Origin: an uncultured Candidatus Saccharibacteria bacterium
GTDB lineage: Bacteria; Patescibacteriota; Minisyncoccia; Phycocordibacterales; JAKAEA01
Reading direction: 5' to 3'
Length of the DNA stretch: 64,000 bases
NCBI GenBank assembly: GCA_964532205.1
Contig: CAZHGQ010000004.1
Coordinates: 3,118 to 67,117 of the forward strand
Shown: piece after piece, positions 7,977 through 58,031 of the stretch
Numbering within the stretch: the stretch's first letter is position 1
Layout: each line of letters opens with the position of its first letter
Notes under the pieces: model-generated
What the model saw: the letters and a program-made list of their open reading frames with translations, nothing else
Database searches by the model: none
What the model was told of the DNA's origin: nothing
Translations under genes and position numbers: made by a program

Positions 7977-7978
7977 AT

Positions 7979-15401: not shown

Positions 15402-15555
15402 CTCCTTTCGGATTTTGATATTACAATATATTTATAAAAAGTCAAACGGCTGGGTGCCGTCGTAGAGGATGTTAGAACTATTTTCGAGAGAAGGAATGAT
15501 GCGACGATCTACATTCCTGACATGCAAAGTATAGCAGTTTTAGCTTAATTCGGCT

Positions 15556-15626
15556 CTTTTTGGCTCTTTTTGGCCTAATCTGGCCTAGCGTTAGGGCAAT
15601 TTAGGGCAAAATAGGGCAAAAAAGAA
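15556..15626. repeat. Cluster of short direct repeats (ggctcttttt x2, tggcct x2, tagggcaa x3) at the left edge of the low-GC island
   Basis: Seen directly. A 19-mer aatttagggcaaaataggg recurs at 26281-26299. Confidence 0.5.
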
Positions 15627-15635
15627 CACTTTTTA

Positions 15636-17609
15636 CTAGCTTTCATCAATGGCTTTAATGATTTCGAACACCCTCCCCACCTCCTTTTCCTTGGCTAAGT
15701 AGTCAGCGTACATTTTGTGCGCATTTTGAATTAGCTCCTGATAAAGCACTACTCGGATGTTCTTTACTGCCAGAGATTTTGCTGACTCTTCTCTTTTTTG
15801 TGCATTTTTCCAATCGGAAAGATTCTTCCCCACAATACAAACCACTTCAACCGGTTCTTTGGTGTTGGCCTTATCAAGGATTTCTAAAAGCTTGTCCCTG
15901 TATTTTTCTACTTGTCCCAGTAATTCTGAAGTACTAACTGTTCGGTCTGGCCTCTTTAATTCAATTATAATGTGTTTACCGGCTGAATTCTTATATCGAA
16001 TATCAACACGGCCATCTTTCTCATCACCTTTTGCCTTGGCGTTTAATTTATTAAAAGCTGTCTTTACTTGCTGTTCAAGATACGGTGCTTCTGTAGCTCG
16101 GTCCCAAGAAGGATCAAGTAACCAGAGATTATCGTAGAGATGTTGCTGCACTACTTTCTCAAGAGCATTATCCTCAACTTTCTCCTGAAGGGCCTTAATA
16201 ACAACCACCCTGGCTTTCGTGATTTGGTGATACAAAGTTGCTTCTATGTCATTATGCTCACTAAAAATCTGTGTGAACAAAGCCACATTTGAAGGGTCCA
16301 TATTTTCGAGTGCATCAAGATTTTCTCTGTAATTCAGAGTCTCGAATGCAAGAATAGCATGCTTGAACAATGTCTTTCGCTGGTCATCTGACTCAAGTGT
16401 GAGCTGATTGATTTTTCCGAATAGTGACTCAGCTTTTTTCTTTTTATCTCCCTTCAGACCGGAGAACCATTGTCTTATGACCTTGTTTTCTGTCGCCTTT
16501 TTGACACCCTCTCTGTTTCTTAGGTCAGTCCACTTTGATTGTACGTACTTCAACTCCCCATTGATGAAAGCTAGCAATTCCTTATATCTTGGATCGTCGT
16601 TTATTATGCTTTGTCTACTTGTAGTTGCGATATCTTCTTCATCGTCAGTATCCAAAAAATCAGCGTGGATTTCTCCAATTATATATTTGGTATACATTCC
16701 ACCTTCGGCGAAACTTTCCATGATATCTTCCTGAGCAAGCTTTCCACGAACCATCACTACAATCTTGTTGAGATTGTCTTCGCCATCTTTCAAATCGCCC
16801 GAGGAATTGACGGTACCAATCCAACCAGTTACCTTCACTTTTTTACCTTTGATTGTCAGCTCACCATCTCTTTTTTCCTTGTGTTCTGCTTTTTCAGAAC
16901 AGTGATCGGCATATTGTTTGCTGGCCGAACCGAAATACCAAATATATTGAAGTTTATGAAAATAATCCCGATCAGTGATTTTTACTTCGGAAGAATTAAT
17001 GAGGACGGAAAACTTATTTTCACTTCCAAGAATACTGAAGCGTCTTGCCACTCTCTTTTTTAGAGCTTCGTCTGTACCCTCAGTCACATTCCTCTTGAGT
17101 TCAGAGATCGTTATTCTTGTACCATTCTTTGTAAGAGATATATTTTTAGGGTCTATAGGCACAGGATGATACGTGCCCATACCTCCAGAAGCTTCCAACT
17201 GCTTCTCGATTTCACTTGCTATCAAAACAAGACCGTTCTTCTCACCATCCTTGTAAGTTTCAATTTCAATTTTATTAGCTATAGAAAACAGAGACAGTTT
17301 TCCGATGCCCTTTCGACCCATAACAGGTCGCTTATATTTTTTGGTAACTGACATACCAGCTTTCCTTCGGTCATATCCAACTGTAAGGTATTTATCATTG
17401 ATGTCATCGAGAGACATGCCATGTCCGTCGTCCTGAATCAATATTTTTTCTTTTTCTGTGGAAATCTCAACCTTAGTCGCATCGGCATCCCAAGCATTCG
17501 CAACTACCTCGGACAAAACCGCAGGGACGTTACTGTACAATTTTATACCTAAGTGATTGAGTACATTTAGGCTAATTTTAATTTGATATTTTTTGTCGTT
17601 CTTTTCCAT
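15636..17609 (-). CDS. MORC/MutL-like GHKL ATPase fused to C-terminal PD-(D/E)xK nuclease domain; predicted restriction component
   Basis: Bergerat ATP-binding motifs EVVANAWDADA, DDGHGM, GRKGIGKLS. C-terminal VDIRY...HIIIELKRP (D...ExK). Overlaps the downstream C5-MTase gene by 32 nt. Confidence 0.65.
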   Translation of the reverse strand: MEKNDKKYQIKISLNVLNHLGIKLYSNVPAVLSEVVANAWDADATKVEISTEKEKILIQDDGHGMSLDDINDKYLTVGYDRRKAGMSVTKKYKRPVMGRKGIGKLSLFSIANKIEIETYKDGEKNGLVLIASEIEKQLEASGGMGTYHPVPIDPKNISLTKNGTRITISELKRNVTEGTDEALKKRVARRFSILGSENKFSVLINSSEVKITDRDYFHKLQYIWYFGSASKQYADHCSEKAEHKEKRDGELTIKGKKVKVTGWIGTVNSSGDLKDGEDNLNKIVVMVRGKLAQEDIMESFAEGGMYTKYIIGEIHADFLDTDDEEDIATTSRQSIINDDPRYKELLAFINGELKYVQSKWTDLRNREGVKKATENKVIRQWFSGLKGDKKKKAESLFGKINQLTLESDDQRKTLFKHAILAFETLNYRENLDALENMDPSNVALFTQIFSEHNDIEATLYHQITKARVVVIKALQEKVEDNALEKVVQQHLYDNLWLLDPSWDRATEAPYLEQQVKTAFNKLNAKAKGDEKDGRVDIRYKNSAGKHIIIELKRPDRTVSTSELLGQVEKYRDKLLEILDKANTKEPVEVVCIVGKNLSDWKNAQKREESAKSLAVKNIRVVLYQELIQNAHKMYADYLAKEKEVGRVFEIIKAIDES

Positions 17610-18666
17610 TTTTCTGTAGATGCTGTTTTATACTTTGACCTATCACTTCTCCCAATCTGACAGGGACCGCATTACCAATAAATTTTGCCACTTGAGCAAC
17701 AATAATTGGTTTGTTTGTAGGGACAAACTGGTAATCTTTGGGGAATGTTTGGAATATCGCTGCCTCACGAAGACTTATGGCTCTATTCTGCTTTGGATGA
17801 CCGAATCTACCATTTCCAAGGCCTACACACTGAGTTGTCATGGTAGGTGCAGGCTCATCCCACCTCATTCGCCCATATACAGTACTACTGTAGGTCTTTC
17901 CTGATTCTTTCTTGTGGCACTCTAACATCAAATCGTCAGACCAGCTATCTGAATTGCCTCCATCATGAGGAGTAGCTTTAATACGTCTCAAATTAACTGG
18001 GGCAAGCTTTCGTGATCGATGTAAGGGGTCTTTTTTGCTTGTCTCTCCATCTTTGATTGGTTCAAGGTCTTTAATAACATCTCGAACAGTGACTCGATTA
18101 TCCTTATGAGTTCTTTTAATCAAGGAAATCTCACCAAGCTTGGAAGCAAGTAGAACTAATCTTCGGCGTCTTTGTGGTACTCCAAATTCTGATACATCCA
18201 CAACTTCATATTTATATTTATATCCATTATCTTCCAAAGTCTTAAGGAAATTTGCGAAAACAGGATATTTATTAGTGTCTGCTAGGCCGCTTACATTTTC
18301 CATAGAAACAACATCCGGTTGAGTCTGCGCAATAAGTTGGGCAAACTTTCCCAATGGCTCAAGTTGCTTTTGTGTGACCTCTTTTAAATTTAATTTCGAG
18401 AAGGGCTGACAAGGTGCGCAACCTGCAAGTACTCGAATTGAATCTTTTTTTGAACCAAACAATTCATTCACTTGATCGGCTGTAACCTTGAGAATATCCT
18501 TGTCGATAAATTTTGTTTTGTTGTTGTATTCGTATCCGAATTTACACGACGAATCGTTATCAATACCGGCCACAACGTCTAAACCTTCCTTTATGAGACC
18601 ATGGGTCAAACCGCCAATACCGCAGAATAAATCAATGACTTTAATTTTTTTACGATTTGAGCTCAT
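17578..18666 (-). CDS. DNA (cytosine-5)-methyltransferase; start moved to internal Met at 18666
   Basis: Motif I DLFCGIGGL, motif IV PCQPFS, motif VI ENV, QRRR. The ORF-track start at 18813 adds a non-homologous 49-aa leader. Confidence 0.85.
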   Translation of the reverse strand: MSSNRKKIKVIDLFCGIGGLTHGLIKEGLDVVAGIDNDSSCKFGYEYNNKTKFIDKDILKVTADQVNELFGSKKDSIRVLAGCAPCQPFSKLNLKEVTQKQLEPLGKFAQLIAQTQPDVVSMENVSGLADTNKYPVFANFLKTLEDNGYKYKYEVVDVSEFGVPQRRRRLVLLASKLGEISLIKRTHKDNRVTVRDVIKDLEPIKDGETSKKDPLHRSRKLAPVNLRRIKATPHDGGNSDSWSDDLMLECHKKESGKTYSSTVYGRMRWDEPAPTMTTQCVGLGNGRFGHPKQNRAISLREAAIFQTFPKDYQFVPTNKPIIVAQVAKFIGNAVPVRLGEVIGQSIKQHLQKNGKERQKISN

Positions 18667-18724
18667 TAGTAACACTATTATAATCCGAAAACGCTTAATT
18701 GACGATCCGAAGTGTAACAAAAGG

Positions 18725-20147: not shown

Positions 20148-20168
20148 AATTGATAATATTTCTCTGGA

Positions 20169-20390: not shown

Positions 20391-20418
20391 ATATTTATGT
20401 TAATTATTTTTTATAAGT

Positions 20419-21063: not shown

Positions 21064-21085
21064 ATTTTTGTAGTTAGATTAATAA

Positions 21086-24050: not shown

Positions 24051-24054
24051 ATTT

Positions 24055-26561: not shown

Positions 26562-28154
26562 ATGAACCAAACTACTCCACGAATACTCTACATATACGCC
26601 AGAAAATCCTCTGAAAGTGAGGACCGGCAAGTTCAATCTATCGACGATCAGGTGAACCGCCTAAAGGAGCTGGCAAACAGTCTGGGAATCACTATCAAAG
26701 AGGTTCTGACAGAAGCTAAGTCTGCCAAGAAGCCGTATTGCCGACCAGTCTTCGATGACATGCTCAAACGCATTCAGCGAGGTGAGGCTGATGGCATTCT
26801 TTGTTGGCAACTTAATCGACTTTCTCGAAACCCCGTTGATAGCGGAGCTCTTAGCTGGATGTTGCAGCAAGGAGTTTTAAAATGTATTCAAACAATTGAT
26901 CGTCAATATTTACCTGATGATAACGTCCTTCTTTTTAGTGTTGAAAGTGGGATGGCAAATCAATTTATTATTGATCTTAAGAAAAACAGCATGCGAGGAA
27001 TGGTTGGAAAAGCTGATCGAGGTTGGCTACCCTCTCGTGCTCCGATGGGATATTTAAATGACAAACTCGAACATACAATCATCGAAGATAAGGACCGTTT
27101 TGATTTGGTCCGAAAGATGTGGGACGTGATGCTTACCGGCAATTACACTCCTTCTCAAATTTTAAAGACTGCAAATGATAAGTGGGGCTTTAGAACTCCC
27201 AAAACAAAACGAAGTGGTGGCGGTGAACTTGCCAACAGCATGATTTATAAGATATTCACCAACATCTTCTATACCGGCATGTTTGAATGGGCTGGAAAGC
27301 TGTATAAGGGCAACCATAAGCCCATGATTAGCCTTGAGGAGTTCGATCGGGTCCAAGCTATCCTGGGCCGAAACGGTAAGCCACGCGGCCAGACTCATGA
27401 GTTTGCATACACTGGCCTTATTTACTGTGAAGAATGTGGCTCGATGTATACCGCAAGTGAAAAAACCAAGTGGGTTGAAAGTGAAAAGAAGTTTAAAACA
27501 TATATTTACTATAACTGCACACGACGTAAGAAAGGAATCACCTGTACGCAAAGAAAACCGATTACGCTCGAAAAACTTGAGGAACAAGTAGACATTCAAC
27601 TTGAGCGATACAGCATTCTTCCTAAATTTAAAGATTGGGCTCTTGAGATTTTGAACAGAGAAAATAATAAAGAGATTGAGGACCGAACCAAGGTCTACGA
27701 GACACAGCATAAAGCAGTCGCCGAAACTCAAAAAGAAATCGACGCTCTTACCAAGATGCGTTATCGAGAATTGATTGATGATGAGACCTTTGTGAAAGAA
27801 CGTGACGATTTGAAAGCAAAACTTACCAAGTTAAAGGCCAATCTGCACAATACCGAAAACCGAGCCGAGAAGTGGCTAGAACTTACTGATAAGACATTTA
27901 ACTTTGCCTGCTATGCACGAGAAAACTTTAATTCTGGGACCTTGGAGAAGAAGCGAGAAATCTTTGCAGCACTTGGTTGGAACTTTTCAATAAAAGACAA
28001 AATAGTGAGCATTAAAGCCAATGATTGGTTTGTTCCAATAGAAAAAGCTTACCCAGAGCTTGAAGCTGAATATCGTCGGTTGGAACTACAAAAATACCTT
28101 TCAGCTGAGGCACGAAATGCTGCTTTTGCCTCACTCATTCTACGTTGGGGTTAG
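26562..28154 (+). CDS. Large serine recombinase rec1 (resolvase N-domain, recombinase domain, zinc ribbon, coiled coil)
   Basis: YARKSSESEDRQVQSIDDQ catalytic-Ser region. CEECGSMY...YYNCTRRKKGITC zinc ribbon. About 60% identical over the N-domain to 60008..61657. Stop codon lies inside the 268-bp inverted repeat. Confidence 0.85.
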   Translation: MNQTTPRILYIYARKSSESEDRQVQSIDDQVNRLKELANSLGITIKEVLTEAKSAKKPYCRPVFDDMLKRIQRGEADGILCWQLNRLSRNPVDSGALSWMLQQGVLKCIQTIDRQYLPDDNVLLFSVESGMANQFIIDLKKNSMRGMVGKADRGWLPSRAPMGYLNDKLEHTIIEDKDRFDLVRKMWDVMLTGNYTPSQILKTANDKWGFRTPKTKRSGGGELANSMIYKIFTNIFYTGMFEWAGKLYKGNHKPMISLEEFDRVQAILGRNGKPRGQTHEFAYTGLIYCEECGSMYTASEKTKWVESEKKFKTYIYYNCTRRKKGITCTQRKPITLEKLEEQVDIQLERYSILPKFKDWALEILNRENNKEIEDRTKVYETQHKAVAETQKEIDALTKMRYRELIDDETFVKERDDLKAKLTKLKANLHNTENRAEKWLELTDKTFNFACYARENFNSGTLEKKREIFAALGWNFSIKDKIVSIKANDWFVPIEKAYPELEAEYRRLELQKYLSAEARNAAFASLILRWG

Positions 28155-34935: not shown

Positions 34936-37900
34936 ATGTCAGCGTATCTTTCCATCGATGAGCAACTTGCCCAGGAGTTTTACGATTGGGAACTCATTGG
35001 TCGGGGCTGGCAGGTGTGGGACGACCCGGTATCGCCAGAACCGCCGTTCCGACCATTCATTCGGAAGATGCCGCAATGCAGTCGTTCTGATGATGGCAGA
35101 GATCACAGTCTTCTGAGTGGTGTTATTGCTCGGCTTGCCAGACTCTTCGCCGGTCGACCCAACCTGCCTGTGGAACCCGAACCCACTTGGACACCGCTTC
35201 GGATCATCCATGATCCGCCACCCGTGGTGGAACTTGCGCTCGTCCCGCCTGCGGATTTTGATGCTTCGCAGCAGATGATGGCTCAACTGCTTGCTTCGCT
35301 TGCGATGGCGAATCATCCAATCGCATTTGAGATTCTCGCGAGCCAGAACACGATAGTATCGCAGTTCGCCGTTGCACAGAGTGATGCATCAGCAGTACGC
35401 AGTCAGATTCAGGCCCACTTTCCCGAAGTCGCGTTGAGTCAACAGACGAACGTTTTGAAGGATCGATGGGACGCTTCAGGTGAAGCCTCGCTCATCTTTG
35501 AGATCGGTCTCTCGCAGGAGTTCATGCGCCCGCTGCCCGTCCCGCCCAAACTCACGCCTGATGTGCTGGTCAGTGTCATGGGAGCAATGGAGGAAGTGTC
35601 CACCGACGAACTAGCGCTCATGCAGATGATCTTTGAGCCCGCCCGTTATCCGTGGGCAGCGAGCATGCTGCGAGCGGTGACCTTCAATGACGGCAGCGAA
35701 TTCTTCGATGCATCGGAAAGTGTACTCGATGAGACAAAGGAAAAACTCTCCCGTCCTTTGTATGCCGCCGTCATTCGACTGGCGGTTAAGACCGCCGATG
35801 AAGCTCGCACGTTCGAAATCGCCCGTTCCTTAACCGCTTCGCTCACCGCAGGTTTTCAAGGCTATGGCAATGACCTGATAGCTTTAAGCAATGATGAGTA
35901 TGATCCAGACGATCACGAGTTTGATACCCTTCATCGCCAGTGCCGACGCAGCGGCATGATCCTCAACAGCGATGAACTGGTGAACTTTGTTCACATACCT
36001 TCTTCCGCTGTACGCACCTCGAAGTTTACCCGGCAACTCAAACGCACCAAACGCGCTCCCGCCATTGCTGCTGGCAGAGATTGTGTTTTGGGTGAGAACT
36101 TCCACGCCGAACATACCATTCCTGTGGGTGTGGCTGCGGAAGAGCGCTCCAGACACATGCACCTCATCGGTGCATCCGGCACGGGAAAGTCGCAGTTGCT
36201 TTTGAACCTCATCGTGCAGGACATGGAACATGGCAAAGGCTTGGGGCTTCTCGATCCGCACGGCGATCTCGTGGACGACGTGCTTTCTCGCGTGCCCGAA
36301 GATCGAATTGATGATGTTGTGCTGCTGGATCCATCCGATGAGACGCACACCGTTGGCATCAACATCCTTTCTGCTAGAACCGAAGTCGAGAAAACCGTCC
36401 TCGCGTCGGATCTAGTAGCTGTGTTCCAACGACTCGCGACTAGTTGGGGCGATCAGATGACTTCAGTGCTTGGGAACGCTATCCTCGCGTTTCTGGAGCG
36501 TCCGCAGGGAGGTACGCTTGCCGATCTTCGACGCTTTCTCATCGAACCCGCGTATCGCAACGAAGTGCTTTCTTCCGTCACCGACCCGGAAGTCATCTAT
36601 TACTGGAAGAAGCAATTCCCCCTCATTCGCGGCATGCCGCTTGGCTCTGTGCTCACCCGACTCGACACGTTCCTGCGTCGCAAACCGATTCGGCAGATGG
36701 TCTGCCTCAAAGAAAAAGCTTTGGATTTCGCGGATATCATGGATCGCGGCAAGATTTTCCTCGCTCGCATCCCTCAGGGTTTGGTTGGCGAAGAGAATGC
36801 TCACCTTTTGGGCAGCTTGCTGGTGTCCAAGTTCTATCAACTGGCAATGGTGCGACAGCAGAGCGCCGCATCTCACCGCCGCGATTTCTATCTTTACATC
36901 GATGAGTTCCACCATTTTGTCACGCCGTCGATGTCATCCATTCTCTCTGAAGCGCGAAAGTATCGCTTGGCATTGATTTTGGCTCATCAGGAATTGCGGC
37001 AACTGGAAAGTCGCGGTGTGGATCTTTCGAGCGCCGTTCTTTCTCATCCGTATACCCGCATCTGCTTTCGTGTCGGAGATCAGGATGCCAAGCGTTTGGC
37101 GGAAGGGTTTTCGTTCTTCACCGCGGCGGATTTGCAGAGTTTGAGCACCGGTGAAGCCATCTGCCGCATGGAACGGTCGAATTACGATTTCAATCTTCGC
37201 ACAAAGCTTCTGCCAGAATTGGAATGGCAACGGGTTGAGGAAAAAAGAAGGAGTGTCATCGAGCGGTCGCGAGACCAGTTTGCTGTTTTGCGGAGTTCGC
37301 TAGTGGATGCCACGTCACTTACGACGGAGAGCTTCACCGCGGAGGAGATTGCGGAGCCAGAGGTCGAACCAATCATTGTGGAGCCGAAACCGGAGACTCC
37401 CGCACCGGCACCACGTCCAATCGCAAAGCCGCCGAAAGTGAAGCCGCTGGCGGATGAGCCCGCGAACCTGGGACGCGGCGGACCCGAACATCAGTATCTG
37501 CAACAACTCATAAAGCAGTGGGCGCAGGGTATGGGGTATCGAGCTTCTATTGAGGCGCCGTTGCCGGAGGGCGGAAGTGTCGATATCGCCTTGGAAAAAG
37601 GCAATCACCGCATCGCCTGCGAAACCAGTGTCACCAATACGCCCGCATACGAGGTCAGCAATATCCGCAAGAGTCTGGTCGCGAAGTATCAATACGTCGC
37701 GGTTGTGACGACCGACCTCAAGCACCGCGAGAAGATCGAAGCGGCGGCGGAGCAGTCATTAACTGACGCGGAGCTGAAGCAGGTGCGATTCTTCTCCCCC
37801 GACGAACTCTTCGCGTTTGTTCAAGAGTTGGAGGTAAACGACGCGAAGCAGGAGCGGCTGGTGTGCGGATACAAAGTGAAGACCTCGGTGCGCTCCACCG

Positions 37901-37986
37901 ACGCACAAGATCAAGCGATGCGGCAGCAGGCGATTGCCCAGGTCGTCGCTCGTTCGGTGACGCGGATGCGGAAAAAGAAACAGTAG
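34936..37986 (+). CDS. Large HerA/FtsK-superfamily ATPase (DUF87-like) with Pro-rich linker and C-terminal PD-(D/E)xK-like or DNA-binding domain
   Basis: Walker A GASGTGKSQ, Walker B IDEFHHF, ARKYRLALILAHQ (HerA-type arginine-finger region). Paralogous ATPase core to 53398..54690. C-terminal GGSVDIALEKGNHRIACE. Confidence 0.6.
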   Translation: MSAYLSIDEQLAQEFYDWELIGRGWQVWDDPVSPEPPFRPFIRKMPQCSRSDDGRDHSLLSGVIARLARLFAGRPNLPVEPEPTWTPLRIIHDPPPVVELALVPPADFDASQQMMAQLLASLAMANHPIAFEILASQNTIVSQFAVAQSDASAVRSQIQAHFPEVALSQQTNVLKDRWDASGEASLIFEIGLSQEFMRPLPVPPKLTPDVLVSVMGAMEEVSTDELALMQMIFEPARYPWAASMLRAVTFNDGSEFFDASESVLDETKEKLSRPLYAAVIRLAVKTADEARTFEIARSLTASLTAGFQGYGNDLIALSNDEYDPDDHEFDTLHRQCRRSGMILNSDELVNFVHIPSSAVRTSKFTRQLKRTKRAPAIAAGRDCVLGENFHAEHTIPVGVAAEERSRHMHLIGASGTGKSQLLLNLIVQDMEHGKGLGLLDPHGDLVDDVLSRVPEDRIDDVVLLDPSDETHTVGINILSARTEVEKTVLASDLVAVFQRLATSWGDQMTSVLGNAILAFLERPQGGTLADLRRFLIEPAYRNEVLSSVTDPEVIYYWKKQFPLIRGMPLGSVLTRLDTFLRRKPIRQMVCLKEKALDFADIMDRGKIFLARIPQGLVGEENAHLLGSLLVSKFYQLAMVRQQSAASHRRDFYLYIDEFHHFVTPSMSSILSEARKYRLALILAHQELRQLESRGVDLSSAVLSHPYTRICFRVGDQDAKRLAEGFSFFTAADLQSLSTGEAICRMERSNYDFNLRTKLLPELEWQRVEEKRRSVIERSRDQFAVLRSSLVDATSLTTESFTAEEIAEPEVEPIIVEPKPETPAPAPRPIAKPPKVKPLADEPANLGRGGPEHQYLQQLIKQWAQGMGYRASIEAPLPEGGSVDIALEKGNHRIACETSVTNTPAYEVSNIRKSLVAKYQYVAVVTTDLKHREKIEAAAEQSLTDAELKQVRFFSPDELFAFVQELEVNDAKQERLVCGYKVKTSVRSTDAQDQAMRQQAIAQVVARSVTRMRKKKQ

Positions 37987-38266: not shown

Positions 38267-39850
38267 ATGATTGCACGCACGTCGTACGAGATTCACAAAC
38301 CGGTGGGCATCTGGATTCGCGTCTCGACTGAAGACCAGGCCCAGGGTGATAGTCCTGAGCATCATGAGAAGCGTGCCCGCTATTACGCCGAATCCAAAGA
38401 GTGGGACGTCAAAGAGGTGTATCACCTGGAAGGTGTGAGTGGAAAGACGCTCATGGGGCATCCCGAGACACGCCGAATGCTCGAAGACATCCGCACCGGG
38501 AAGATTCGCGGGTTGATCTTCTCCAAGCTCGCCCGTCTCGCCCGCAATACCAAGGAACTCTTGGAGTTCGCCGATATCTTCCGCGAACACAACGCGGATT
38601 TGATTTCTCTTCAAGAATCGATTGATACCTCCACACCCGCAGGCCGTCTCTTCTACACCATGATTGCAGCGATGGCGCAGTGGGAACGGGAGGAGATCGC
38701 GGATCGCGTGAAGGCATCGATTGCCATCCGAGCTAAGCTGGGCAAGCCGTTAAGCGGCAGACCGGCATTTGGATATACACTTAAGGATAAGAAGGTCGTT
38801 CCCCATCCCACCGAAGCCCCGGTTCGCAAGCTCATCTATGAATTATTTGCCGAGCATCGCCGGTACAAGACGGTGGCGAGGCTGCTCAACGAGTCCGGGT
38901 ATCGCACCCGAAGCGGTGGACTCTTCTCCCATTCCACCGTTGAACGACTCATTGACGATCCAACCGCTAAAGGCGTGTATCGCACAGCGTTCACTGAGAA
39001 GATCAAAGGCAGAAGCTGGGTAAGCCAGAAGCCGGAGAGCGAATGGACGACGATTGCGGTTGAGCCCATCGTTTCTGAGGAGTTGTGGGAACAGTGCCAC
39101 AAGTTGCAGGCAGAGCGGTACCAACCTCGCAAGCGTCCAGGCAAACGTCCGGTGCATCTGTTTGCAGGATTGGCGTACTGTGAATGCGGCAAGAAGATGT
39201 ATGTCCCGTCCAACACGCCCAAGTACGTCTGTCAGGCCTGCCGCATCAAGATTCCCATCGTGGACTTAGAGAATGTCTTTATTGAACAACTCAAAGGTTT
39301 CTTCCTATCCCCCGATCAACTTGCAACGCATGTCGAATTGGCAGATGACAACATCCGAGAAAAGCACAAGCTTCTTGAGGTGCTTCAATCGGAAGCGGAC
39401 AAGCTTCAAGCCGAGATTGACAAGACCTACCAACTCTATCTGGAAGGACAGTTATCCACCGAAGGCTTCGGCAAGTTCTACAAACCCCTGGAAGACCGGC
39501 AGAAGCAACTTGGGGAGGAGCTACCCAAGCTCCAAGCTGAGCTTGACCTGCTGCGGATTAATGGCATTTCCGCTGATCTCGTCATGACTGAAGCCAAGGA
39601 CCTCTATGCCCGCTGGAAGGATTTAGACAAAGACGAGAAGCGCCGAGTCATTGAATCTCTTACCGATCGGATCACGATCGGAAAGGAGGCGATAGACATA
39701 AGTCTTTGCTTTCGCCCCTCCTATGAAGAAATGACAAATAGGCAACGCGAGCTTGTCATGGCGTTACCTATTTGCCACCTCAAGCTAACTCATCGAATCG
39801 TCGAGAGTTGTGTAAAACCGAAGATCCCGAGCATGATACAATCGAGGTAA
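38267..39850 (+). CDS. Large serine recombinase rec3 (distinct subfamily from rec1/rec2)
   Basis: IWIRVSTEDQ catalytic Ser. Recombinase domain. CECGKKMYVPSNTPKYVCQAC zinc ribbon. Coiled coil. Confidence 0.85.
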   Translation: MIARTSYEIHKPVGIWIRVSTEDQAQGDSPEHHEKRARYYAESKEWDVKEVYHLEGVSGKTLMGHPETRRMLEDIRTGKIRGLIFSKLARLARNTKELLEFADIFREHNADLISLQESIDTSTPAGRLFYTMIAAMAQWEREEIADRVKASIAIRAKLGKPLSGRPAFGYTLKDKKVVPHPTEAPVRKLIYELFAEHRRYKTVARLLNESGYRTRSGGLFSHSTVERLIDDPTAKGVYRTAFTEKIKGRSWVSQKPESEWTTIAVEPIVSEELWEQCHKLQAERYQPRKRPGKRPVHLFAGLAYCECGKKMYVPSNTPKYVCQACRIKIPIVDLENVFIEQLKGFFLSPDQLATHVELADDNIREKHKLLEVLQSEADKLQAEIDKTYQLYLEGQLSTEGFGKFYKPLEDRQKQLGEELPKLQAELDLLRINGISADLVMTEAKDLYARWKDLDKDEKRRVIESLTDRITIGKEAIDISLCFRPSYEEMTNRQRELVMALPICHLKLTHRIVESCVKPKIPSMIQSR

Positions 39851-40738
39851 ATGACGTCTACAAGAGGTGGGGTGAATATTGAACTTCAAGTACGCGATAT
39901 CGCGCTACTTCGTGACCTTTTTGAATCTCGATTCATGGCACTCCGGCACATCGCGGGCCTACATTTTGACTCTCGGCACGAGCCAGCCCGAAAACGAGTA
40001 TCTCTACTTTGCAGTGCAGGATACATCCGGGTGAGGGCACGCCACTTTAACGAACCTGCGCTGTACTTCTTGACCGCGCGCGGCATGCGACTTCTTTCGC
40101 AATACGGCCACTTAGGATCGTATCCTCATCTGTCTCGCGCGGTCTTGCAGAAGCGACTTGAGATAAGTTCACTAACTCTCCGGCATGAGCTCGATGTGCT
40201 GGATGTCAAAACGGCATTTGTGAACGCGACAAGATCAAACGCCAAACTCCGCATCGCAACCTTCTCAACGTGGCCGAAACTGCATTCCTTTCAAATGCTT
40301 TCAAGCGACGGGTCTGAAGTCATCGTAAAGCCTGATGGGTATATCGTCGTCCAAGAACCGCGTGCCGATTGCCCGCTTGTCATCCATCGATTCTTCCTTG
40401 AAGTCGACCGAAGCACCGAATCGCTTCGGGTCATTGACACGCGATGCAACGCATACGTCGACTATTACCGCAGCGGGGGCTTCGCTGTCGCAAACGGATT
40501 GTCATTCGACGATTATAAGCGTTTCCCATTCCGCGTTCTGATCATCACCAAGAGCGAAGAACGCCTGCAAAACATCGCCGACCGGATAAGCAAGACCGCT
40601 GGATCTCAGATTTGGCTTACGACACAGCGCGATTTCATAATCGGTTCGCTTGGGCAGATTTGGCGCTTGGTGAAACACGGCCACACTAACCAGCCGAACG
40701 ATCACAAGTCGCTCTTCATCACCCGCACCAATTTTTAA
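39851..40738 (+). CDS. Replication-relaxation (Replic_Relax) family protein
   Basis: N-terminal wHTH (DIALLRDLFESRFMALRHIAGL) and FFLEVDRSTE core motif. Confidence 0.6.
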   Translation: MTSTRGGVNIELQVRDIALLRDLFESRFMALRHIAGLHFDSRHEPARKRVSLLCSAGYIRVRARHFNEPALYFLTARGMRLLSQYGHLGSYPHLSRAVLQKRLEISSLTLRHELDVLDVKTAFVNATRSNAKLRIATFSTWPKLHSFQMLSSDGSEVIVKPDGYIVVQEPRADCPLVIHRFFLEVDRSTESLRVIDTRCNAYVDYYRSGGFAVANGLSFDDYKRFPFRVLIITKSEERLQNIADRISKTAGSQIWLTTQRDFIIGSLGQIWRLVKHGHTNQPNDHKSLFITRTNF

Positions 40739-40762: not shown

Positions 40763-41092
40763 TCATCTACTGGAGTGCAGTTCCTTCAGACCTGCTCGCG
40801 CATCATCGGCCTCCTTATCCAATCCTTCTGTCTCTGCCAGGGGGATTACCCTCTGAAACATTTCGATCGCTTCGACTAAGCGTCCGAGATCTTTCATCAA
40901 GCATGCGAGGCAATAGAGAATCTGCACCCGATCGTAGGTATCTTCTTCTTGTTCAGCCTTAAGCAAAGCTTCGCGAAGTTGATTTTCTCCATCAGTGGTA
41001 CGGCCACGATCGAGTAGCAGTAGTGCTTTATTGAACATGTCACGTGCATTCATTTTATCTCCCATACATTCTAATGAAGTTGCGAGAAGCAC
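40763..41092 (-). CDS. TPR-like small protein; candidate immunity protein for the upstream Rhs toxin
   Basis: Helical TPR-like repeats. Immediately downstream of the toxin gene, overlapping it by 38 nt. Confidence 0.4.
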   Translation of the reverse strand: MLLATSLECMGDKMNARDMFNKALLLLDRGRTTDGENQLREALLKAEQEEDTYDRVQILYCLACLMKDLGRLVEAIEMFQRVIPLAETEGLDKEADDARAGLKELHSSR

Positions 41093-44000
41093 GTGGTACT
41101 AAATACATCTCAGAGAGGAGTTTGACTTGCCTCTCGATGTCCGCAACTCCAAAATTCGGATTTGCGTTGGCGAAAAGTTCCCACTGCTTGTTCCACTCAG
41201 GGTGCAGTGTCTTGTGGAGTGCGTAAGGTATTTCTGTAATCCGTTGATCTACGAACTTGCGCGGGTCATAGCCGAGAGCTCGGAGCCGATTGCTGAAAGT
41301 GGAATTCTTGAGCAGTTGCTGCGGCACAAGATGATGTTGCCTCATTGCCGCTGGTCCGTAGCGTGCACGGTAGCCTGATGTATTTCGTACCATGCCGCTC
41401 GGCGTCGATCCGGACAATGAATAAACTGCAGTTGAGCCAACTCCGACCACACCGCCCCAGTTGACCGCAGCCCCACTAAAGACGCTTGCAGCAGTTGAAC
41501 CACCGCCCATCACTGAAGCAACAGTTTGACCACCGATAATGGACAGCGCTGGTGGAGGTGTCCGGCTAAAGAGCATCAACGCGCCCTGGGCGCCTTCATC
41601 GGCGTATCGCAACGCCGTGGTCGAGAACCGGCTAATCGCGCCGGGGAACGAACCGGCCAGAGCGCCGATGTTCGTGCCGACCTCCACGCTCTTCCAGTAG
41701 TCCGCTCCTGTCGATGCGGAATAGATCGCGCCACCAGCGCCGCCGACCGCTGTTCCTGCAGCGAGATACCAAAGCGCAGAAGTGCCACCTGACGCTACGG
41801 TCAACGCGACTGTGCCGGCCCATCCGGAAATCTTCGCTAGATGATATGGATCGGCATTCCACTCCGCAGATGGCCGGAACGCGTCATATTTACCCGAGAA
41901 ATCCGTCCACGCATCGAGTGTGCTTGGATTGCTCCATTGTCCTTGTGTTCCGGCGAAACCATCCTTCTCCTGCACGCCCGTCCATTCGACGTTTTTGCCA
42001 TCAAAGAATCCACCGGCGGTATAGCTTTGGTAGGCGTAGCCATCTTCTGTCTGCGGCGTGCCGCGGTAGCTGTCGTGCTCGGTTTGGTTGGGCATCCAAA
42101 GCATGCCGTCACCATCATCACGACCGCCACGCCAAAGGTAACGGAAGCGGTAACCGTCGCTAGACGTGGACCTGCCGTATTGATCGACTTTATAATCAAA
42201 GGTGCTGGTTCCTGTGGATTGACCGACTGCAACCTGTCCTTCTGTTGTGTATGTGTACATCTCACGGTTGATCGCCAAACTTGTAAAATCTTCGCGGATG
42301 CGCCAGACGCTGCCATCGGGTCCGCTGTACACCCAGACACGACTACCATCATCATTGTCTCGAAGCACCATCCGTCCGGGTTCACCGGCGCTCCAGACAT
42401 ACTGATTCTGGGGCTGAGTGCGATACGTGCCGTCAATCTGCTCTTGTTTCTCTTCAATCACATTGCCAGCGGCGTCATAGAACAGGTGCAGCGTGCCCTG
42501 ATATCCCGTGACCTCTTGCGTGCTGTTGGTCTCGGAGATGCGTCGTCCAAGCGCATCGTAGTCGAATGTCAGCGTGTGCGCATTGGGAATATCGTAAGCG
42601 TATTGGTATTGAGAATTCCCCGGATCGGCGAAGATCTCGTCGAGCTTGACTGTCGTCTTGCTTGCGAGCCGACCCAACCCGTCATACTGAACAAAGACAT
42701 CAATGCGCTGATCGATATTATCGACAGGTGTTGATTGAATCGGGCTATTGCCGGTTGGCACTGGGCGCTGGAACACTAAACGTGCAGGTGGATCAAAGGT
42801 GTTTGTCCCGCTTCGGTCGCGTGTCAGGACACTGGCATCGATGATGTTATCCCAATTCTGCGATGAGATTGGCAGCGGATCACCATCGGAATCGGTCGTG
42901 ACGGAAGGCGCGTTGAGGCTGGTCAATCTTCCGCGTTTGTCGCTGCCTGTATTCAGCCAGTAAGTGAAATTCCCTGGATAGTCTCCATCACCGCGGACGA
43001 ACGACTGAACTCTGCCCAACTGGTCATATACCTGATTCGCCGGCGCGCTGCCCGAGCCATACAACTCGCTTCTCCACCGTCCGTTGAAGTTGTCTTGGCT
43101 ATCAAGCCAAGAGTAAAGAACATTCCCATCAGCGTCGTAGCCATAAGCACGTTGTTCGAGGCCGACGTCATGAATGACTACGCGCCCAAACCGATCGAGC
43201 CCGCCATATTGATCGTTGACGCGACCTGCATCGTCGGCGACCTGGTTCCAATCCATTGTCACTGCTGATGCAGGATCGAGATCATAAATGTATGTCGTAC
43301 CTTGAAATGATACGGCCACGCCGCCAGCACTAAGCACACGCGGCATATTACGTTCGACAATGCGATTCAAGCCAAGATACTCGTAACGTTCCAGCCGGTC
43401 GTTGTTTACGGCGGTGGATGGATCACCATCGACCATGAATCCAACTCTGCTGATCCGATCGTTGAGCACTCGGCTGAAGTTCACGAGCGTACTGCTGGTC
43501 GTGTAGTCTTGATATCCATACACCACGCCCACTTCGCGGCCATCGGGATAGACTGTCTTTGCAAGACGGGTGAGATTGTTTCCAAAATCGGTGGTGTAGA
43601 CGTATTGAACCTTTTGCGATGGAGTCCCTCCTGTACGAGCGACCGATGTCTTGTGTTCCTGCCATTCTGTTACGAGATTGCCAAGCCCGTCGAAGTCCCG
43701 GATCACTTGATTCTTGACCGTTGTTCCAGAATCGAGCGTTGTAAATTCAATTCCCCGGCTGAGTGCATCGAATCGTGTGCGAATCTTCTGACCACGATCC
43801 AACATGTTGGCCGGTTTCGATGCGGCATCGATCCACTCCGTCAGCGTCAGTCTGCCAAGTGTGTCGTAGTTGAATCGCTGCTCGCGAATCTGTTTCTGCG
43901 TAGCCGACGTGCTGAGGTTGTAGATTTCCTCTTTCTGTTGCCTGTTTTCGCCCAATGCGGTATAGCCGGTCATCACCTCGCGATGCCCTGATCCAGAGTA

Positions 44001-47000
44001 AGCACCAGCAGGACGACCGTATACAACACTGCTCAAGAGCCCGCTGTGATTGACAAGAATCGTGCTGTTTTTCGTGACGCCATAGTTGTACGTCGTGATG
44101 TAGGAATAGGCGGTGTTTGATTTGTAGGTGGTGGTTTCAATCTGGGTTTGCTGATCAAAGCCGTTGTAGGTGTAAAGCGTTTTTCGCGTGTCGTCTGCGG
44201 TTGGAGCAGATGAGCGATATCCTTCTTGAACAATGGTGGCACGATCCAGCGCGTCATAGGTTGTGCGAGTGACTACACCTCGCGGACTCACCACATCCTG
44301 CAACCGGCCCGCAGTGTCAAAAACATAATCTGTCTGCAACCAACGATCCCAACCATCAGCTGCAGTATCGCGTCCAGGAGCGGTGCTTGGTCGCGAAAAG
44401 TCCCGCACGCCGTTTGCATTGGCATCGCCATCATCGCCATTGTTGCCCCAGTTGACCTGATTGGTCAGTCGGTCCGCAGAATCGTAATAGTTGCCGACAA
44501 GACTGATGCGGGCATTCAAAGAAGTTAAGTCACCCAAATCCGTCTTGTCATGATCCCGCTGCCCGGTTGCAATCAGAGTTGGATTTCCGTTGCCGTCATA
44601 ACTTGTTTCAACTTGTTCCAAAACAACATCATCGCTTACGCTGCCAGCGGCGGTATAGTTGCCGGAAGCACCAGGTGCCGGATCATCTTTTCCATCAGTC
44701 GTGTATCGCTTGGTTTCCCGGCTAGCCCCGTCGTACACCATCTTCTGATTTAAGCCGCCGGGGTTGCGCTGTTTGATCAGGTTGCCGCGATTGTCGTACC
44801 ACATGCTGGTGGTAAGGTAATTGCCTTTTGTGCCCGCAGTACCGGACCATTCCTGCTCGACGCTATACTGCCGTACTTCGTACACGTTTCCGCGATCATC
44901 AAACAGGGTGTCTTGATATGCGCGACGTTGCGCGGAGAGCGTGCTATCCACCGTTCCCAGATTCAAACTGTTGATGTTCTGCCCGTCGCCGTCGTAAATA
45001 CCCTTGCCAACACATCTATCCAAGTTGTCAAAAACACAGAGTGTAATAGGTGAGTTTACCGTCGTGTCGCTGGTGACTCCTTCATGCGTCAACACCAGAC
45101 GATCGCGCCAATCATAGCGCATGGCGGTCACGCGATCCGCGTTAGAGCCTCCTGGAATTTGCGTGACCTTCGTGAGCGTATCGTCACCCACGTTTCCACC
45201 GTCAACGCTGCCACCATCATATTCATTGGCAGTGACCTTCGTCATATTCGTGCCGGGAGAACCTGGAGACCAACTACTGTCATCCGTACCCACCCACGTT
45301 GAGATTGCACGATCCAGTCCGTCATACACGGTGCGCGTGATGGTTGGGTTAAAGCCGGAGAGACTTCCGCCCGTGTACAAATCTCGACCGGCAGCTTGGC
45401 GCGTCTGCCGTCCCCGCTCATCGTAACCAAACTCGGTGCGATATCGGGTTGTCGTGCCTGTTAGAGCGCCAGTGCTGGCGGTATAGGCGTTGCCCGAGGT
45501 GTCCGCGAAACGCTCGACCGCTGTGGCTTGCTGCTGGATATTATGCTCAGTGCGCGTGCGTTTTGTGACTGTTGAAAGCAAGTCACCCGAGCTATCGCGC
45601 ACCACGTCGATTTCATCAAGCACACCTGTCGCGCGATTATCTATAATGACATGGGCTGGTGGAGTATTCCCTGAGCTCGGCAACGGCGGCGTGATTGTCA
45701 CTCGCTTCAGAGCGGCACTGTCGTCATATTCACTCCTAGTAATCCCCGTGCTCAAGCCCATGTAGGTGTTTGCATCCGTAATCTTTCTGTTTCGACCAAG
45801 TAGATCCGCTTCGAAGCCCGTTGTTAATGGAGCTCCGCCACTATCAACAACACTCTGCTTAAGGGCACCCGTGGCGTCAAAATACTGGTTGGTTGCGACC
45901 TTGCCATCGCCGTCCGTAAACGACGTTTCTCTGCCGAAAGAGTCGTACGCCATAATCTCGGTCTTTGATGTGGTTTGTGTGCCGCCGTTCTGAGCCTGAA
46001 GAATGTCGGGAAGCGTTGTAGTTCTTTGTGTGATCCGGTCACTACTATATGAATACGAATAGCTTGTCGTAACGGCACTCGCGCTGGCGTCGCTTCGATA
46101 GACCGTATCAGAAGCGACAACAAATGCGCTCGACGTTGGTGTGCCACCTGTTGCACTTGGACGAGCGCTGTACGTGAGTTCGACTTGCAGATTTTGCGAT
46201 CCTCCTGTCCCCTGTTTTCGACCTGTACGCCACAAGTACCCCGTAGCACTTGCTGGGTCATACTCAAATGTATGGACCAACCCGGTGGCACTCTGCAAGG
46301 TTGCCGGGTGATTGTTGCTGTCGCTGATTGACGCGACAGCTGTCGGCGTCGCTGTAAGGGTCAAGCGTCCTTTTGCATCGAATTGATTGGCGGTGTTCCA
46401 AGTCGCCGCCGTTGTCGCTGTGGGCGAGCTATAACTTGTGAGCAGGACTTCGCCACGGCTGTTTGTGTAAACGACATTCTTGTCGTTATTGCTCAGATCT
46501 GCATTGTCGGAATCCGGTAGGGATTCAATTGTCTTTGAATCCCACGTGTTTACACCACTGCGCCCACCGGTGGTACTCGACGATGGACCAGCATAGTCAT
46601 AGCTGAACGTTCCACTGCCTTGAATCGTCTGCGTTTTCACTCGATTACGCCGAAGTACGGTGGAATCATCGGCGGCGTAGTAATCGAGCACAAGATTCGC
46701 GTACGGTTGGAGTGTCGCTTGGTTCACTGACGCTGGATCCATTCCTTCGCGGCCAAGCGCACGCTCATAAGAAGCGCCCTCAAGCACGAGAATCAGTCGG
46801 CCATAGTTGTCATAGCGATAGAGCTTGCGTTCGACTGCATTGCCACTTTGCTTGACGGTAACGCGCTTCAAGTTTCCAGGATTGCCATATGTGGTGTCGC
46901 TTCCACCGTAATATTCGTATTCGACGTTGCGCACCGCTTCGACTGCACCCGCATTGAGGTCGTTGCGTCGCTCCATCAGCATGCCAGTGAGTTGATTGAT

Positions 47001-57612: not shown

Positions 57613-58029
57613 TTGCTGCGCGCAGAAAGGGTGGCCATGCCACGCAAACAAAAGGTACGACGCTTTGATCCAGGGTTTCATTGTGTTTCGCAGCTAAGTT
57701 TGGAAGAAGAAGCGCGGTTTCTACACCGCGAGGTCGAGAATAGTTTAATCGCCTCTCCCGCCGAACTCGACAAGCTGCGGATTGAGCGACACACCCATTG
57801 CGAACAATCCTGGCAACACCTTTGTTGTCTTCTCGCTCACGTAGCGGAGAAGGATCGCCGAGTATTGCAGGCACTTCTCTTCCGCGACCTATGGTTTGTG
57901 GTCGAATTGTATCGCACCTACCTCAAAGCCAACGCAGAGGACGCGCCACCCATCCGTCAGCACGCGAAGCCTTCAACGGCCCTTGAATTCAGCGATTTTC
58001 TCTTTGACCTTCAACCCCGAAAGGAGTGA
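57613..58029 (+). CDS. Hypothetical protein, translationally coupled to the primase
   Basis: Stop codon at 58027-58029 with primase ATG at 58032. Preferred over the Arg-rich antisense ORF 57302..57874. Confidence 0.35.
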   Translation: MLRAERVAMPRKQKVRRFDPGFHCVSQLSLEEEARFLHREVENSLIASPAELDKLRIERHTHCEQSWQHLCCLLAHVAEKDRRVLQALLFRDLWFVVELYRTYLKANAEDAPPIRQHAKPSTALEFSDFLFDLQPRKE

Positions 58030-58031
58030 CC

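Follow-up and report, generated by a model that had tools for sequence, protein, structure and literature searches.

A probable BbrUII/HgiDII-family Type II restriction-modification cassette, with a GHKL ATPase fused to its nuclease, in an uncultured Candidatus Saccharibacteria bacterium

Gene organization and boundaries of the locus

The stretch of DNA under study (the window, 64,000 nucleotides of contig CAZHGQ010000004.1) carries on its minus strand a gene for a C5-cytosine DNA methyltransferase (M) followed by one for a restriction endonuclease (R), together with the flanking elements collected in Table 1. An earlier note on this DNA, made from the sequence, had predicted here an ATP-dependent restriction-modification (R-M) system in which a MORC-like GHKL ATPase, fused to a PD-(D/E)xK nuclease, is coupled to a methyltransferase. 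Both reading frames are found at precisely the positions which that note had given, and both are intact, the gene encoding the ATPase being undisrupted. A longer reading frame for M, extending up to 18813, can be drawn; nevertheless, we consider the ATG at 18666 as the real start, since this is where homologues and gene calls start, and since the promoter-like site would fall inside the longer frame.

Table 1. Coordinates of the genes, domains and flanking elements of the locus in the window.
Feature	Position	Strand	Size or extent	Remarks
Whole mobile R-M cassette	15452..18706	(-)	3.25 kb	promoter, M, R and 3' region
Promoter-like site	18677..18705	(-)		TCGTCA-17-TATAAT; ends 11 nt ahead of the M start codon
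C5-cytosine DNA methyltransferase (M)	17578..18666	(-)	362 aa	
M stop / R start overlap	17578..17609	(-)	32 nt	
Restriction endonuclease (R)	15636..17609	(-)	657 aa	BbrUII/HgiDII family, paraMORC3 architecture
GHKL (Bergerat-fold) ATPase domain	17019..17588	(-)	about residues 8-197	
S5/transducer-like middle domain	16605..17018	(-)	about residues 198-335	includes K290
Long-helix linker region	16095..16604	(-)	about residues 336-505	
C-terminal PD-(D/E)xK nuclease domain	15690..16094	(-)	about residues 506-640	
Conserved 3' non-coding region	15445..15635	(-)		short repeats that form an imperfect hairpin; a terminator-like hairpin follows where the cassette ends

The overlap between the two genes, from which operon coupling had been proposed, is indeed present, and the same 32-nt overlap is found in loci L001-L007, L009 and L025, the spacing in the other loci of the family varying from about -28 to +90 nt. 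More broadly, of 80 genome loci, which come from many bacterial phyla and one archaeon, about 73 have a related C5-methyltransferase gene directly upstream of R and on the same strand; one locus (L050) has no adjacent methylase, and three (L018, L059 and L085) have only distant or partial ones. The same arrangement is observed on a Haloplanus plasmid, and the P2-like E. coli phage PhiR44_1 carries a 38%-identical homologue of R, annotated 'ParaMORC3', adjoining a 'Dcm' gene. Apart from near-identical copies in metagenome-assembled genomes (MAGs), the nearest genome relatives are 50-63% identical, and megablast with the R-M region and a high-GC stretch as queries retrieved nothing from E. coli genomes.

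Comparison of closely related loci defines the ends of the mobile segment. The MAG bacterium GFS_12865 (L007) has only positions 15452-18706 in common with the window, at 92% DNA identity and with both flanks different, while L001-L006 have positions 15451-24768 in common with it (94-99%), and on the right they part from it at the same junction, immediately after ...CTACGACGGCACCC. At the level of sequence, these shared segments establish that M and R are transferred together as one 3.25-kb unit, the two genes being linked in nearly all relatives. Homology to L007 starts at the promoter-like site, whose -10 element and downstream letters are the same in that locus; this site agrees with the consensus at 10 of 12 positions and is a consensus match only, promoter-like sites across the region as a whole showing no excess over shuffled sequences. 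At the other end, the 3' region is kept in L007, L001 and L006 as far as the junction, and it contains three TTGCCCTA repeats opposite AGGCCA/AGAGCCA repeats (fold energy -22.7 kcal/mol, z = -1.9), followed by a terminator-like site at 15461->15445. Looking for inverted or direct repeats that would bound the cassette yielded short, chance-level matches only, and an integron-type cassette end was rejected, there being no GTTRRRY core at the junction. As for the low-GC island on which the pair had been placed, the GC content is low locally (0.40 at 16-19 kb, in comparison with 0.50-0.57 at 28-61 kb), although it is less clear which of the two sides is to be called the island.

Family assignment and domain architecture of R

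Profile comparison, which had been suggested as a check, places R, over its full length, in a curated family of restriction enzymes: with the NCBIfam equivalog NF050001 ('BbrUII/HgiDII family restriction enzyme'), whose cutoff is 550 bits, it scores 805.4 bits (E = 4e-242), residues 8-654 aligning to positions 1-659 of a profile of 659. Among the PADLOC models, R matches REase_II (PDLC03419, 6e-94); none of the Shedu models reaches E <= 0.1. A sequence search of the PDB retrieved the N-terminal domains of Hsp90, MutL and TRAP1 only, and no nuclease.

The N-terminus of R matches Pfam HATPase_c_3 (5e-20) and presents the GHKL motifs ExxxNAWDAD (34-43), DDGHG (59-63) and GRKGIGK (98-104). Across 130 representatives, which are diverse and share 36-52% identity, residues E34, N38, D41, D60, G62, G64, G98, G101, G103, K104 and T164 are conserved at 98-100%, and position 290, in the middle domain, is lysine in 94 and arginine in the other 36. 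The overall fold was analyzed on an AF2 model (mean pLDDT 80), for which the best Foldseek matches of this part, over 400-450 columns, are the ATPase plus middle modules of MORC2/3/4 and of TRAP1/Hsp90, with E values of about 1e-11 to 1e-12. The linker which follows is modelled as a succession of helices (340-372, 376-383, 388-402, 408-435, 442-478 and 481-493), with low confidence across residues 430-510 (pLDDT 53-67).

In the C-terminal domain we have found the nuclease motif D536...E550-L-K552, flanked by E512 and Q566xxxY570. In the same 130 representatives E512, R534, D536, E550, K552, Q566 and Y570 are conserved at 95-98%, those other than R534 reaching at least 96%; these, together with E34, N38, D41 and the two glycine-containing ATPase motifs, are invariant among 62 closer homologues. 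The modelled order of secondary structure elements is alpha-beta-beta-alpha-beta-alpha-beta, and the best structural match is the nuclease domain of the B. cereus Shedu protein (8ti9, E 1.2e-3, prob 0.99), with Nt.BspD6I coming next (prob 0.93-0.98). Weak Pfam matches within the PD-(D/E)xK clan were obtained among the 62 family members (SduA_C in 21, NucS_C in 9, PDDEXK_4 in 5 and YhcG_C in 5), the best to SduA_C being 1.7e-5; window R itself has no SduA_C match at E <= 1 and a sub-threshold match to NucS_C (E = 0.13). On the basis of motifs, model and profile matches, we assign this domain to the RecB/Shedu-like PD-(D/E)xK fold, and the proposed fusion of a GHKL ATPase to such a nuclease is thus borne out by motifs, by conservation in both homologue sets, by fold and by the weak nuclease-clan matches. 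In their 2008 study Orlowski and Bujnicki had pointed out the N-terminal GHKL domain of R.HgiDII and described its C-terminal domain as 'unassigned to any known fold'; it is here placed in the RecB/Shedu-like fold.

The resemblance to Shedu raises the question of whether R acts by itself, as a methylation-independent nuclease of the GHKL-Shedu type which happens to lie beside an unrelated or orphan methylase. Besides the best structural match of its nuclease domain, such a reading finds support in VcSduA, which has the same domain architecture and acts alone, in the report by Iyer et al. of some paraMORC3 genes without conserved neighbours, and in the four loci mentioned above in which an adjacent methylase is absent, distant or partial. 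Nevertheless, we regard it as very improbable, as against it stand the recurrent M-to-R order on one strand with short gaps, the co-transfer of the two genes as a single cassette, the fact that the NF050001 equivalog is a restriction-enzyme family, and the PADLOC assignment to REase_II rather than to Shedu.

The methyltransferase and its probable target

By profile and motif comparison, M belongs to the C5-cytosine methyltransferase family. It aligns to positions 1-323 of the 324 of PF00145 (1.2e-61), scores 141.6 bits with TIGR00675, the dcm superfamily (cutoff 100.65), matches PADLOC MTase_II (PDLC03378, 1.8e-87), and its translation contains the catalytic motifs FCGIGG (I), PCQPFS (IV), ENV (VI), QRRRR (VIII) and GNAVP (X). 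The designation Dcm-type is therefore appropriate in the sense of a PF00145 C5-methyltransferase but not in that of the E. coli Dcm subfamily (NF007772), with which M scores 24.1 bits, far under the cutoff of 710. A 100%-identical M is present in 12 metagenome contigs, with R following it in the 6 places shown.

The association of a C5-methylase with a MutL-like ATPase-endonuclease could also be thought of as a repair module, R fixing the T:G mismatches which arise from deaminated m5C made by M. In E. coli, Vsr and MutL work alongside Dcm, and the overlapping methylase and nuclease genes are reminiscent of dcm-vsr. Iyer et al. moreover stressed how closely the paraMORC-nuclease-methylase sets parallel MutL/Vsr/Dcm. 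However, the named members of the family are restriction enzymes, and in B. breve, DNA methylated beforehand with the B. breve methylases escapes restriction, transformation being raised more than 1000-fold (PMC5829577). In addition, the nuclease is RecB/Shedu-like, no Vsr appearing among the nuclease families matched in the 62 members, and the cassette is mobile and occurs patchily in different phyla, on plasmids and in a phage defence hotspot, a pattern that selfish R-M units would be expected to show. We thus give hardly any credence to a repair function, and M and R are most probably, and with little doubt on our part, an R-M pair of the BbrUII/HgiDII family.

In respect to the target of this pair, M.HgiDII is reported as a GTCGAC m5C methyltransferase, and M.BbrUII, described as m6A in one paper and as m5C in another, is here taken as m5C because the latter paper and the NCBIfam name agree. 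Among the partner methylases of 70 loci, the target recognition domain (TRD) is as conserved as the catalytic part (55% and 46%, respectively), which suggests one specificity shared across the family. By precedent of the named members, whose reported site is GTCGAC (the SalI site), this is the most likely target, and we see about an even chance that the pair acts at it or at a close variant which keeps the TCGA core. In the window GTCGAC is found 11 times for 14-18 expected and is not clearly avoided, while CTCGAG is absent for 13.8 expected. In a pool of 71 loci, all of them bearing the system, CTCGAG is the most depleted 6-bp palindrome (observed/expected 0.49) and GTCGAC is unremarkable, ranking 7 of 64 (0.65). 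We have nonetheless not moved the site to CTCGAG, since single 20-kb loci are underpowered, the pooled set comprised only system-bearing loci, and the depletion classes do not follow TRD similarity.

Proposed mechanism and role of ATP

Taken together, the family match, the conserved catalytic residues and the linkage to M support the interpretation of the locus as an R-M system of the type predicted by Iyer, Abhiman and Aravind (2008). The explanation which we find likely as a whole is that of a complete Type II R-M cassette of the BbrUII/HgiDII family operating by an ATP-gated mechanism. According to this proposal, M would act on a short palindrome of the host DNA, methylating its inner cytosine, and an R homodimer would act at unmethylated sites, with one strand being cut by each PD-(D/E)xK domain. 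Binding of ATP would dimerise the N-terminal GHKL domains, as in MutL, Hsp90 and MORC, and so close around the DNA a clamp formed by the middle and helical regions; clamp closure or ATP hydrolysis would then license the nuclease, ATP being a gate on cleavage and not a fuel for translocation.

That restriction by R requires the binding or hydrolysis of ATP appears to us somewhat better than an even proposition. Alternatively, R would be a plain Type IIP enzyme working independently of ATP, in which the GHKL module would be only a dimerisation or DNA-clamp scaffold and ATP would have no catalytic role in restriction. R.HgiDII was reportedly first assayed like an ordinary ATP-independent enzyme, which implies that ATP may not be strictly needed for cleavage in vitro. 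In agreement with this possibility, R.HgiDII is placed in subtype P of the Type II classification, as an orthodox Type IIP enzyme (table of Orlowski and Bujnicki), the copies on the Haloplanus and other plasmids are annotated merely as 'ATP-binding protein', and the papers searched contain no report of ATP dependence in the BbrUII/HgiDII family. However, every residue for ATP binding and hydrolysis is nearly invariant (98-100%) among the 130 representatives, including Glu34 (catalytic), Asn38 (Mg-binding), Asp60 (adenine-binding) and those of the glycine-rich lid, and position 290 is always basic (K or R). Conservation of the ATP site down to 36% identity indicates that it is not vestigial. 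Also, in VcSduA (GHKL-DUF4263) mutation of either the ATPase (E27A, equivalent to Glu34) or the nuclease (K557A) abolishes phage defence (PMC12137116). We thus consider a scaffold role unlikely and retain the ATP gate as the working explanation.

The window pair is a further member of an already named and curated family, one more intact mobile copy by which little changes. The family itself poses the puzzle of why a Type II enzyme with a 6-bp target retains a fully conserved MutL/MORC-type ATPase, and the compact 3.25-kb cassette with clear ends is a handy test object for the role of this ATPase. It further offers a means of connecting R-M systems with GHKL-Shedu defence and, at a greater distance, with the clamp mechanisms of MORC and MutL.

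Comparison with known systems

[quoted passage not shown] The term MORC-like used in the earlier note is better replaced by paraMORC3: the best sequence assignments of the protein go to a paraMORC3-type family, and we have for this reason not filed it as a MORC. According to Iyer et al., paraMORCs lack the motif which unifies the MORCs, and paraMORC3 proteins are described as having intact GHKL ATP motifs, an S5-like domain and a RecB-like restriction endonuclease fold with E-D-ExK, as accompanying cytosine methylases and undergoing lateral transfer, and as being encoded in a subset of cases by standalone genes (PMC2292703). Likened to this published description, window R shares all the domain features, in accordance with the note's attribution to the systems of Iyer et al. 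A difference lies in the helicase partners which these authors report for MORC/paraMORC R-M operons in general, the window subfamily being a minimal two-gene M-R unit.

The paraMORC-HEPN (Ymh) fusions of R-M neighbourhoods (PMC3710099) have a homologous GHKL and middle module, with 36% identity over residues 1-346. In two CPR loci (L087 and L088), a gene of this type lies downstream of a methylase about 90% identical to window M; the C-terminus of its product is unrelated to the window nuclease, possibly HEPN (an Rx4H motif, LRNAVMH, was seen by eye), and its score with NF050001 (296 bits) is under the cutoff. As nearly the same methylase is paired with a GHKL protein of unrelated C-terminus, the recognition of the site, or the sensing of its methylation, might reside in the shared GHKL-middle-helical module and not in the nuclease domain, the C-terminus being then an exchangeable warhead. 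We put this forward only tentatively and with considerable doubt, together with the wider proposal that the GHKL module of the family is genuinely driven by ATP as the gate of a sequence-specific Type II nuclease, which would make the BbrUII/HgiDII enzymes methylation-aware relatives of the GHKL-Shedu defence nucleases.

VcSduA, a type I-D Shedu protein from the Vibrio cholerae WASA lineage (PMC12137116; Shedu survey, 10.1101/2023.08.10.552793), is alike in combining a GHKL ATPase and a clamp-like middle domain with a PD-(D/E)xK nuclease at the C-terminus. Compared by description, its catalytic positions E27 and K557 have their counterparts in E34 and K552 of window R. Unlike VcSduA, which is encoded by a single gene, is methylase-free and has no known sequence specificity, window R has a methylase partner and falls within a family of restriction enzymes. 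The earlier note, which called these systems poorly characterised biochemically, did not mention that the family is already curated in NF050001 and contains Type II enzymes, nor that the related VcSduA has since been tested genetically. The closest likeness, as compared via the NF050001 profile, is to the BbrUII/HgiDII family itself (M.HgiDII, M.BbrUII), which has the same domain layout and a C5-cytosine methylase partner, and from whose members window R differs in its diverged sequence.

The gene pair and its family

The 657-aa GHKL/PD-(D/E)xK protein (R) was found to match the NCBIfam equivalog model NF050001, "BbrUII/HgiDII family restriction enzyme", scoring 805 bits (cutoff 550 bits) over profile positions 1-659 of 659, a result that we regard as decisive and which by profile match makes R a member of this curated restriction-enzyme family; R is also matched by PADLOC REase_II (6e-94). 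Judged from sequence matches the family is large, with 7265 hits at E <= 1e-5 in a 90%-clustered set and, at E <= 1e-30, 724 among 50%-cluster representatives. The partner (M) is a full-length C5-cytosine methyltransferase according to Pfam (PF00145, 1e-61, 1-323 of 324 positions), exceeds the TIGR00675 cutoff and matches PADLOC MTase_II (2e-87), which bears out the methyltransferase named in the earlier note. The two ORFs, with their 32-nt overlap, were likewise found as that note described them. A start of M at 18813 is formally possible; the ATG at 18666 is taken as the real start, because homologues start at this codon and independent gene calls agree, because the promoter-like site falls inside the longer version of the ORF, and because the DNA homology to a related cassette sets in about 40 nt before 18666.

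Features of the M-R cassette, of the high-GC block and of the related phage pair
Feature	Coordinates	Strand or orientation	Remarks
M ORF	17578..18666	-	362 aa, uninterrupted
R ORF	15636..17609	-	657 aa, uninterrupted
Promoter-like site TCGTCA-17-TATAAT	18705->18677	-	consensus match only
Terminator-like hairpin	15461->15445	-	consensus match only
Pycsar system, complete	28589-30205	+	right after GC step; high-GC block
T4 (type IV) coupling protein	34936..37986		high-GC block
Serine recombinases, two	38267..39850 and 60008..61657		high-GC block
Replic_Relax (relaxase-like) protein	39851..40738		high-GC block
RHS-repeat giant protein	41055..48764		2569 aa; high-GC block
OLD/AriA/GajA-like ABC ATPase (822 aa) beside HerA/mad8-like NTPase (430 aa)	53398-57378	-	
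Primase	58026..59138		high-GC block
ParaMORC3 + Dcm pair of phage PhiR44_1	L090, PV340563, 6021-9069	convergent	between portal and replication genes

Linkage and mobility

We have fetched 80 genome loci encoding relatives of R, from phyla that include Chloroflexota, Poribacteria, Latescibacterota, Acidobacteriota, Proteobacteria, Actinomycetota, Bacillota and Verrucomicrobiota, as well as from one Methanoregulaceae archaeon. A related C5-methylase (41-59% identity) lies directly upstream on the same strand in about 73 of them, the gaps ranging from about -28 to +90 nt, which upholds the coupling to a methylase claimed in the earlier note. A Haloplanus plasmid has the same overlap, and the only annotation of its R is "ATP-binding protein". 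The P2-like Escherichia coli phage PhiR44_1 encodes a full-length homologue of R (38% identical, annotated "ParaMORC3") adjoining a convergent "Dcm" gene (50% identical), in a position that is a known P2 defence hotspot.

The contig of MAG bacterium GFS_12865 (L007) has only 15452-18706 in common with the window, at 92% DNA identity and with both flanks different, while six metagenome contigs share 15451-24768 at 94-99% identity and diverge from the window at the same right-hand junction as L007 (...CTACGACGGCACCC). Together with the promoter-like and terminator-like ends, these shared edges mark the pair as a self-contained 3.25-kb mobile transcription unit, as expected for a Type II R-M system. 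The full-length NF050001 match and the conserved, co-mobile M-R linkage support the R-M system claimed in the earlier note, in the form of a mobile Type II cassette of an already named family, ordinary in kind.

The 9.3-kb module 15451-24768 combines copper/heavy-metal genes with the R-M cassette, the downstream sequence differing in the six metagenome contigs, and metal resistance and R-M travel together in some backgrounds. Behind the R gene, where the cassette is non-coding (15445-15635, minus strand, its 3' end), three TTGCCCTA repeats stand opposite AGGCCA/AGAGCCA repeats and form an imperfect long hairpin (z = -1.9), followed by a 45-nt stretch that is nearly invariant in L007 and in two of the metagenome contigs (L001 and L006).

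A different pairing is observed in two CPR loci, L087 (Candidatus Vogelbacteria, 5001-7731) and L088 (a related MAG, 5001-7719), where a methylase about 90% identical to M has as partner a shorter GHKL protein of 553-557 aa, common to R only over residues 1-346 (36% identity). The C-terminus of this protein is unrelated to R, carries an Rx4H motif (LRNAVMH / VRDALAH) and looks HEPN-like, by eye only. These pairs suggest that the C-terminal effector, or else the methylase gene, has been exchanged between GHKL partners. In L088 the same copper operon as in the window adjoins the pair.

Domains and conserved residues of R

The N-terminal part of R contains a HATPase_c_3 domain (5e-20), and the GHKL motifs noticed earlier (ExxxNAWDAD, DDGHG and GRKGIGK) are all present, as is the C-terminal nuclease motif D536...E550-L-K552. 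R was modelled with AlphaFold2 from 62 homologues (mean pLDDT 80). The N-terminal ~400-450 residues of the model can be superposed on the ATPase and middle modules of MORC2, MORC3, MORC4 and Hsp90/TRAP1 (Foldseek E about 1e-11 to 1e-12), from which an S5/transducer-type domain is predicted to come after the GHKL domain; residues 340-500 are modelled, with low confidence, as long helices. When residues 481-657 were modelled separately (pLDDT 80), the order was alpha-beta-beta-alpha-beta-alpha-beta. E512 lies on the first of these helices, two neighbouring strands carry D536 and E550xK552, and Q566xxxY570 belongs to the helix that follows, a layout which, as modelled, is that of a RecB-type PD-(D/E)xK fold. 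The best PDB match of this second model is the Shedu nuclease domain of B. cereus (8ti9, E 1.2e-3, Foldseek prob 0.99), and Nt.BspD6I ranks second.

Conservation was evaluated over 130 full-length representatives with 36-52% identity. In the ATPase domain, E34, N38, D41, D60, G62, G64, G98, G101, G103, K104 and T164 show 98-100% conservation, the middle domain has K or R at position 290 in all 130, and the nuclease residues E512, R534, D536, E550, K552, Q566 and Y570 are 95-98% conserved; the same ATPase and nuclease residues are invariant in the 62 closer homologues. Neither the loss of nuclease residues among homologues nor the disruption of the ATPase gene, both contemplated in the earlier note, is therefore seen, the R gene being intact.

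Recognition site

Among the partner methylases of 70 loci, the TRD region has a mean pairwise identity of 55% versus 46% for the catalytic N-terminal part; in C5-methylases, a TRD at least as conserved as the catalytic part argues for one target common to the partner methylases of the family. M.HgiDII is reported to make m5C at GTCGAC, and M.BbrUII to be an m5C enzyme too (PMC5867850); with a shared target GTCGAC becomes the default prediction for M. Bisulfite data from B. breve include RTm5CGAY, which would contain GTCGAC, a motif not tied to BbrUII. The prediction was not confirmed by palindrome avoidance in the window, where 11 GTCGAC sites are observed versus 14-18 expected.

The most extreme of the 2080 hexamer classes in the 64-kb window is CTCGAG, with 0 sites versus 13.8 expected (Poisson P about 1e-6), missing from the 42%-GC and the 52%-GC parts alike; GGATCC is also low (3 versus 14). 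Over 71 related loci pooled, CTCGAG is again the most depleted 6-bp palindrome (O/E 0.49, versus 0.65 for GTCGAC). CTCGAG counts are normal in contigs with near-identical copies of the M-R system, and palindrome depletion does not track TRD similarity. The simplest reading is that another, CTCGAG-specific system in the host would account for this absence; no gene of such a system was found among the part of the window's ORFs that was scanned.

Genomic surroundings

Immediately upstream of the cassette is a set of copper/heavy-metal genes for cupredoxin, HMA-DsbD_2, DUF305 and a P-type ATPase, and a large serine recombinase (26562..28154) marks the end of the 42%-GC region around the cassette. 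From 28 to 61.7 kb follows a block of 50-57% GC, ending at tRNA-His and tRNA-Leu (61525-61722), which from its gene content looks like a separate conjugative/integrative mobile element (28000-61700). The 2 kb past these tRNAs have 46-49% GC, and for this reason the low-GC side may be nearer the host's own composition and the high-GC block may be the island. The "low-GC island" of the earlier note thus stands as to the low GC of the cassette region and is doubtful as to the island.

The Pycsar system comprises a cNMP-binding and TIR effector (PADLOC PycTIR, 4e-100) and a PycC cyclase (3e-102); on the Haloplanus plasmid (L089) a Pycsar pair is located ~1.3 kb upstream of the same-family R-M copy. 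The OLD/AriA/GajA-like ATPase and the HerA/mad8-like NTPase may be a further defence pair in the high-GC element. At E <= 1e-4, Pfam matches none of four consecutive minus-strand ORFs of 942, 817, 879 and 207 aa (52-8602), which may encode large surface or conjugation-type proteins of an uncultured lineage.

Proposed mechanism and comparison with known systems

ATP-dependent dimerisation and clamp behaviour are established for MutL, Hsp90 and MORC. From this general behaviour, the proposal of Iyer, Abhiman and Aravind (2008) and the strictly conserved ATP site, we infer that M would methylate a short palindrome, the unmethylated copies of which would be cut by an R homodimer through paired PD-(D/E)xK domains; ATP binding would dimerise the GHKL domains, and the middle and helical regions would close as a clamp around DNA, licensing cleavage. 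The scheme draws also on the related protein VcSduA (GHKL-DUF4263), which loses phage defence with either E27A or K557A and whose predicted dimer forms a clamp of this kind (PMC12137116). The classing of R.HgiDII as an orthodox Type IIP enzyme counts against a strict ATP requirement for cleavage by R. A modest residual interest lies in the role of the conserved ATPase in BbrUII/HgiDII enzymes.

The architecture of R is that of paraMORC3, GHKL followed by S5 and a RecB-like RE fold with E-D-ExK (Iyer, Abhiman and Aravind 2008), as the earlier note had rightly attributed; its label "MORC-like" is wrong, since the MORC-specific motif is absent from paraMORCs (Iyer, Abhiman and Aravind 2008). A relationship of R to GHKL-Shedu (VcSduA; Shedu type I-D) is probable, and R would work like VcSduA. 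Filing R as Shedu was rejected, because R, being paired with M, is not "single-gene, methylase-free". As R falls in a curated restriction-enzyme family, the system is of a known kind rather than a new one.
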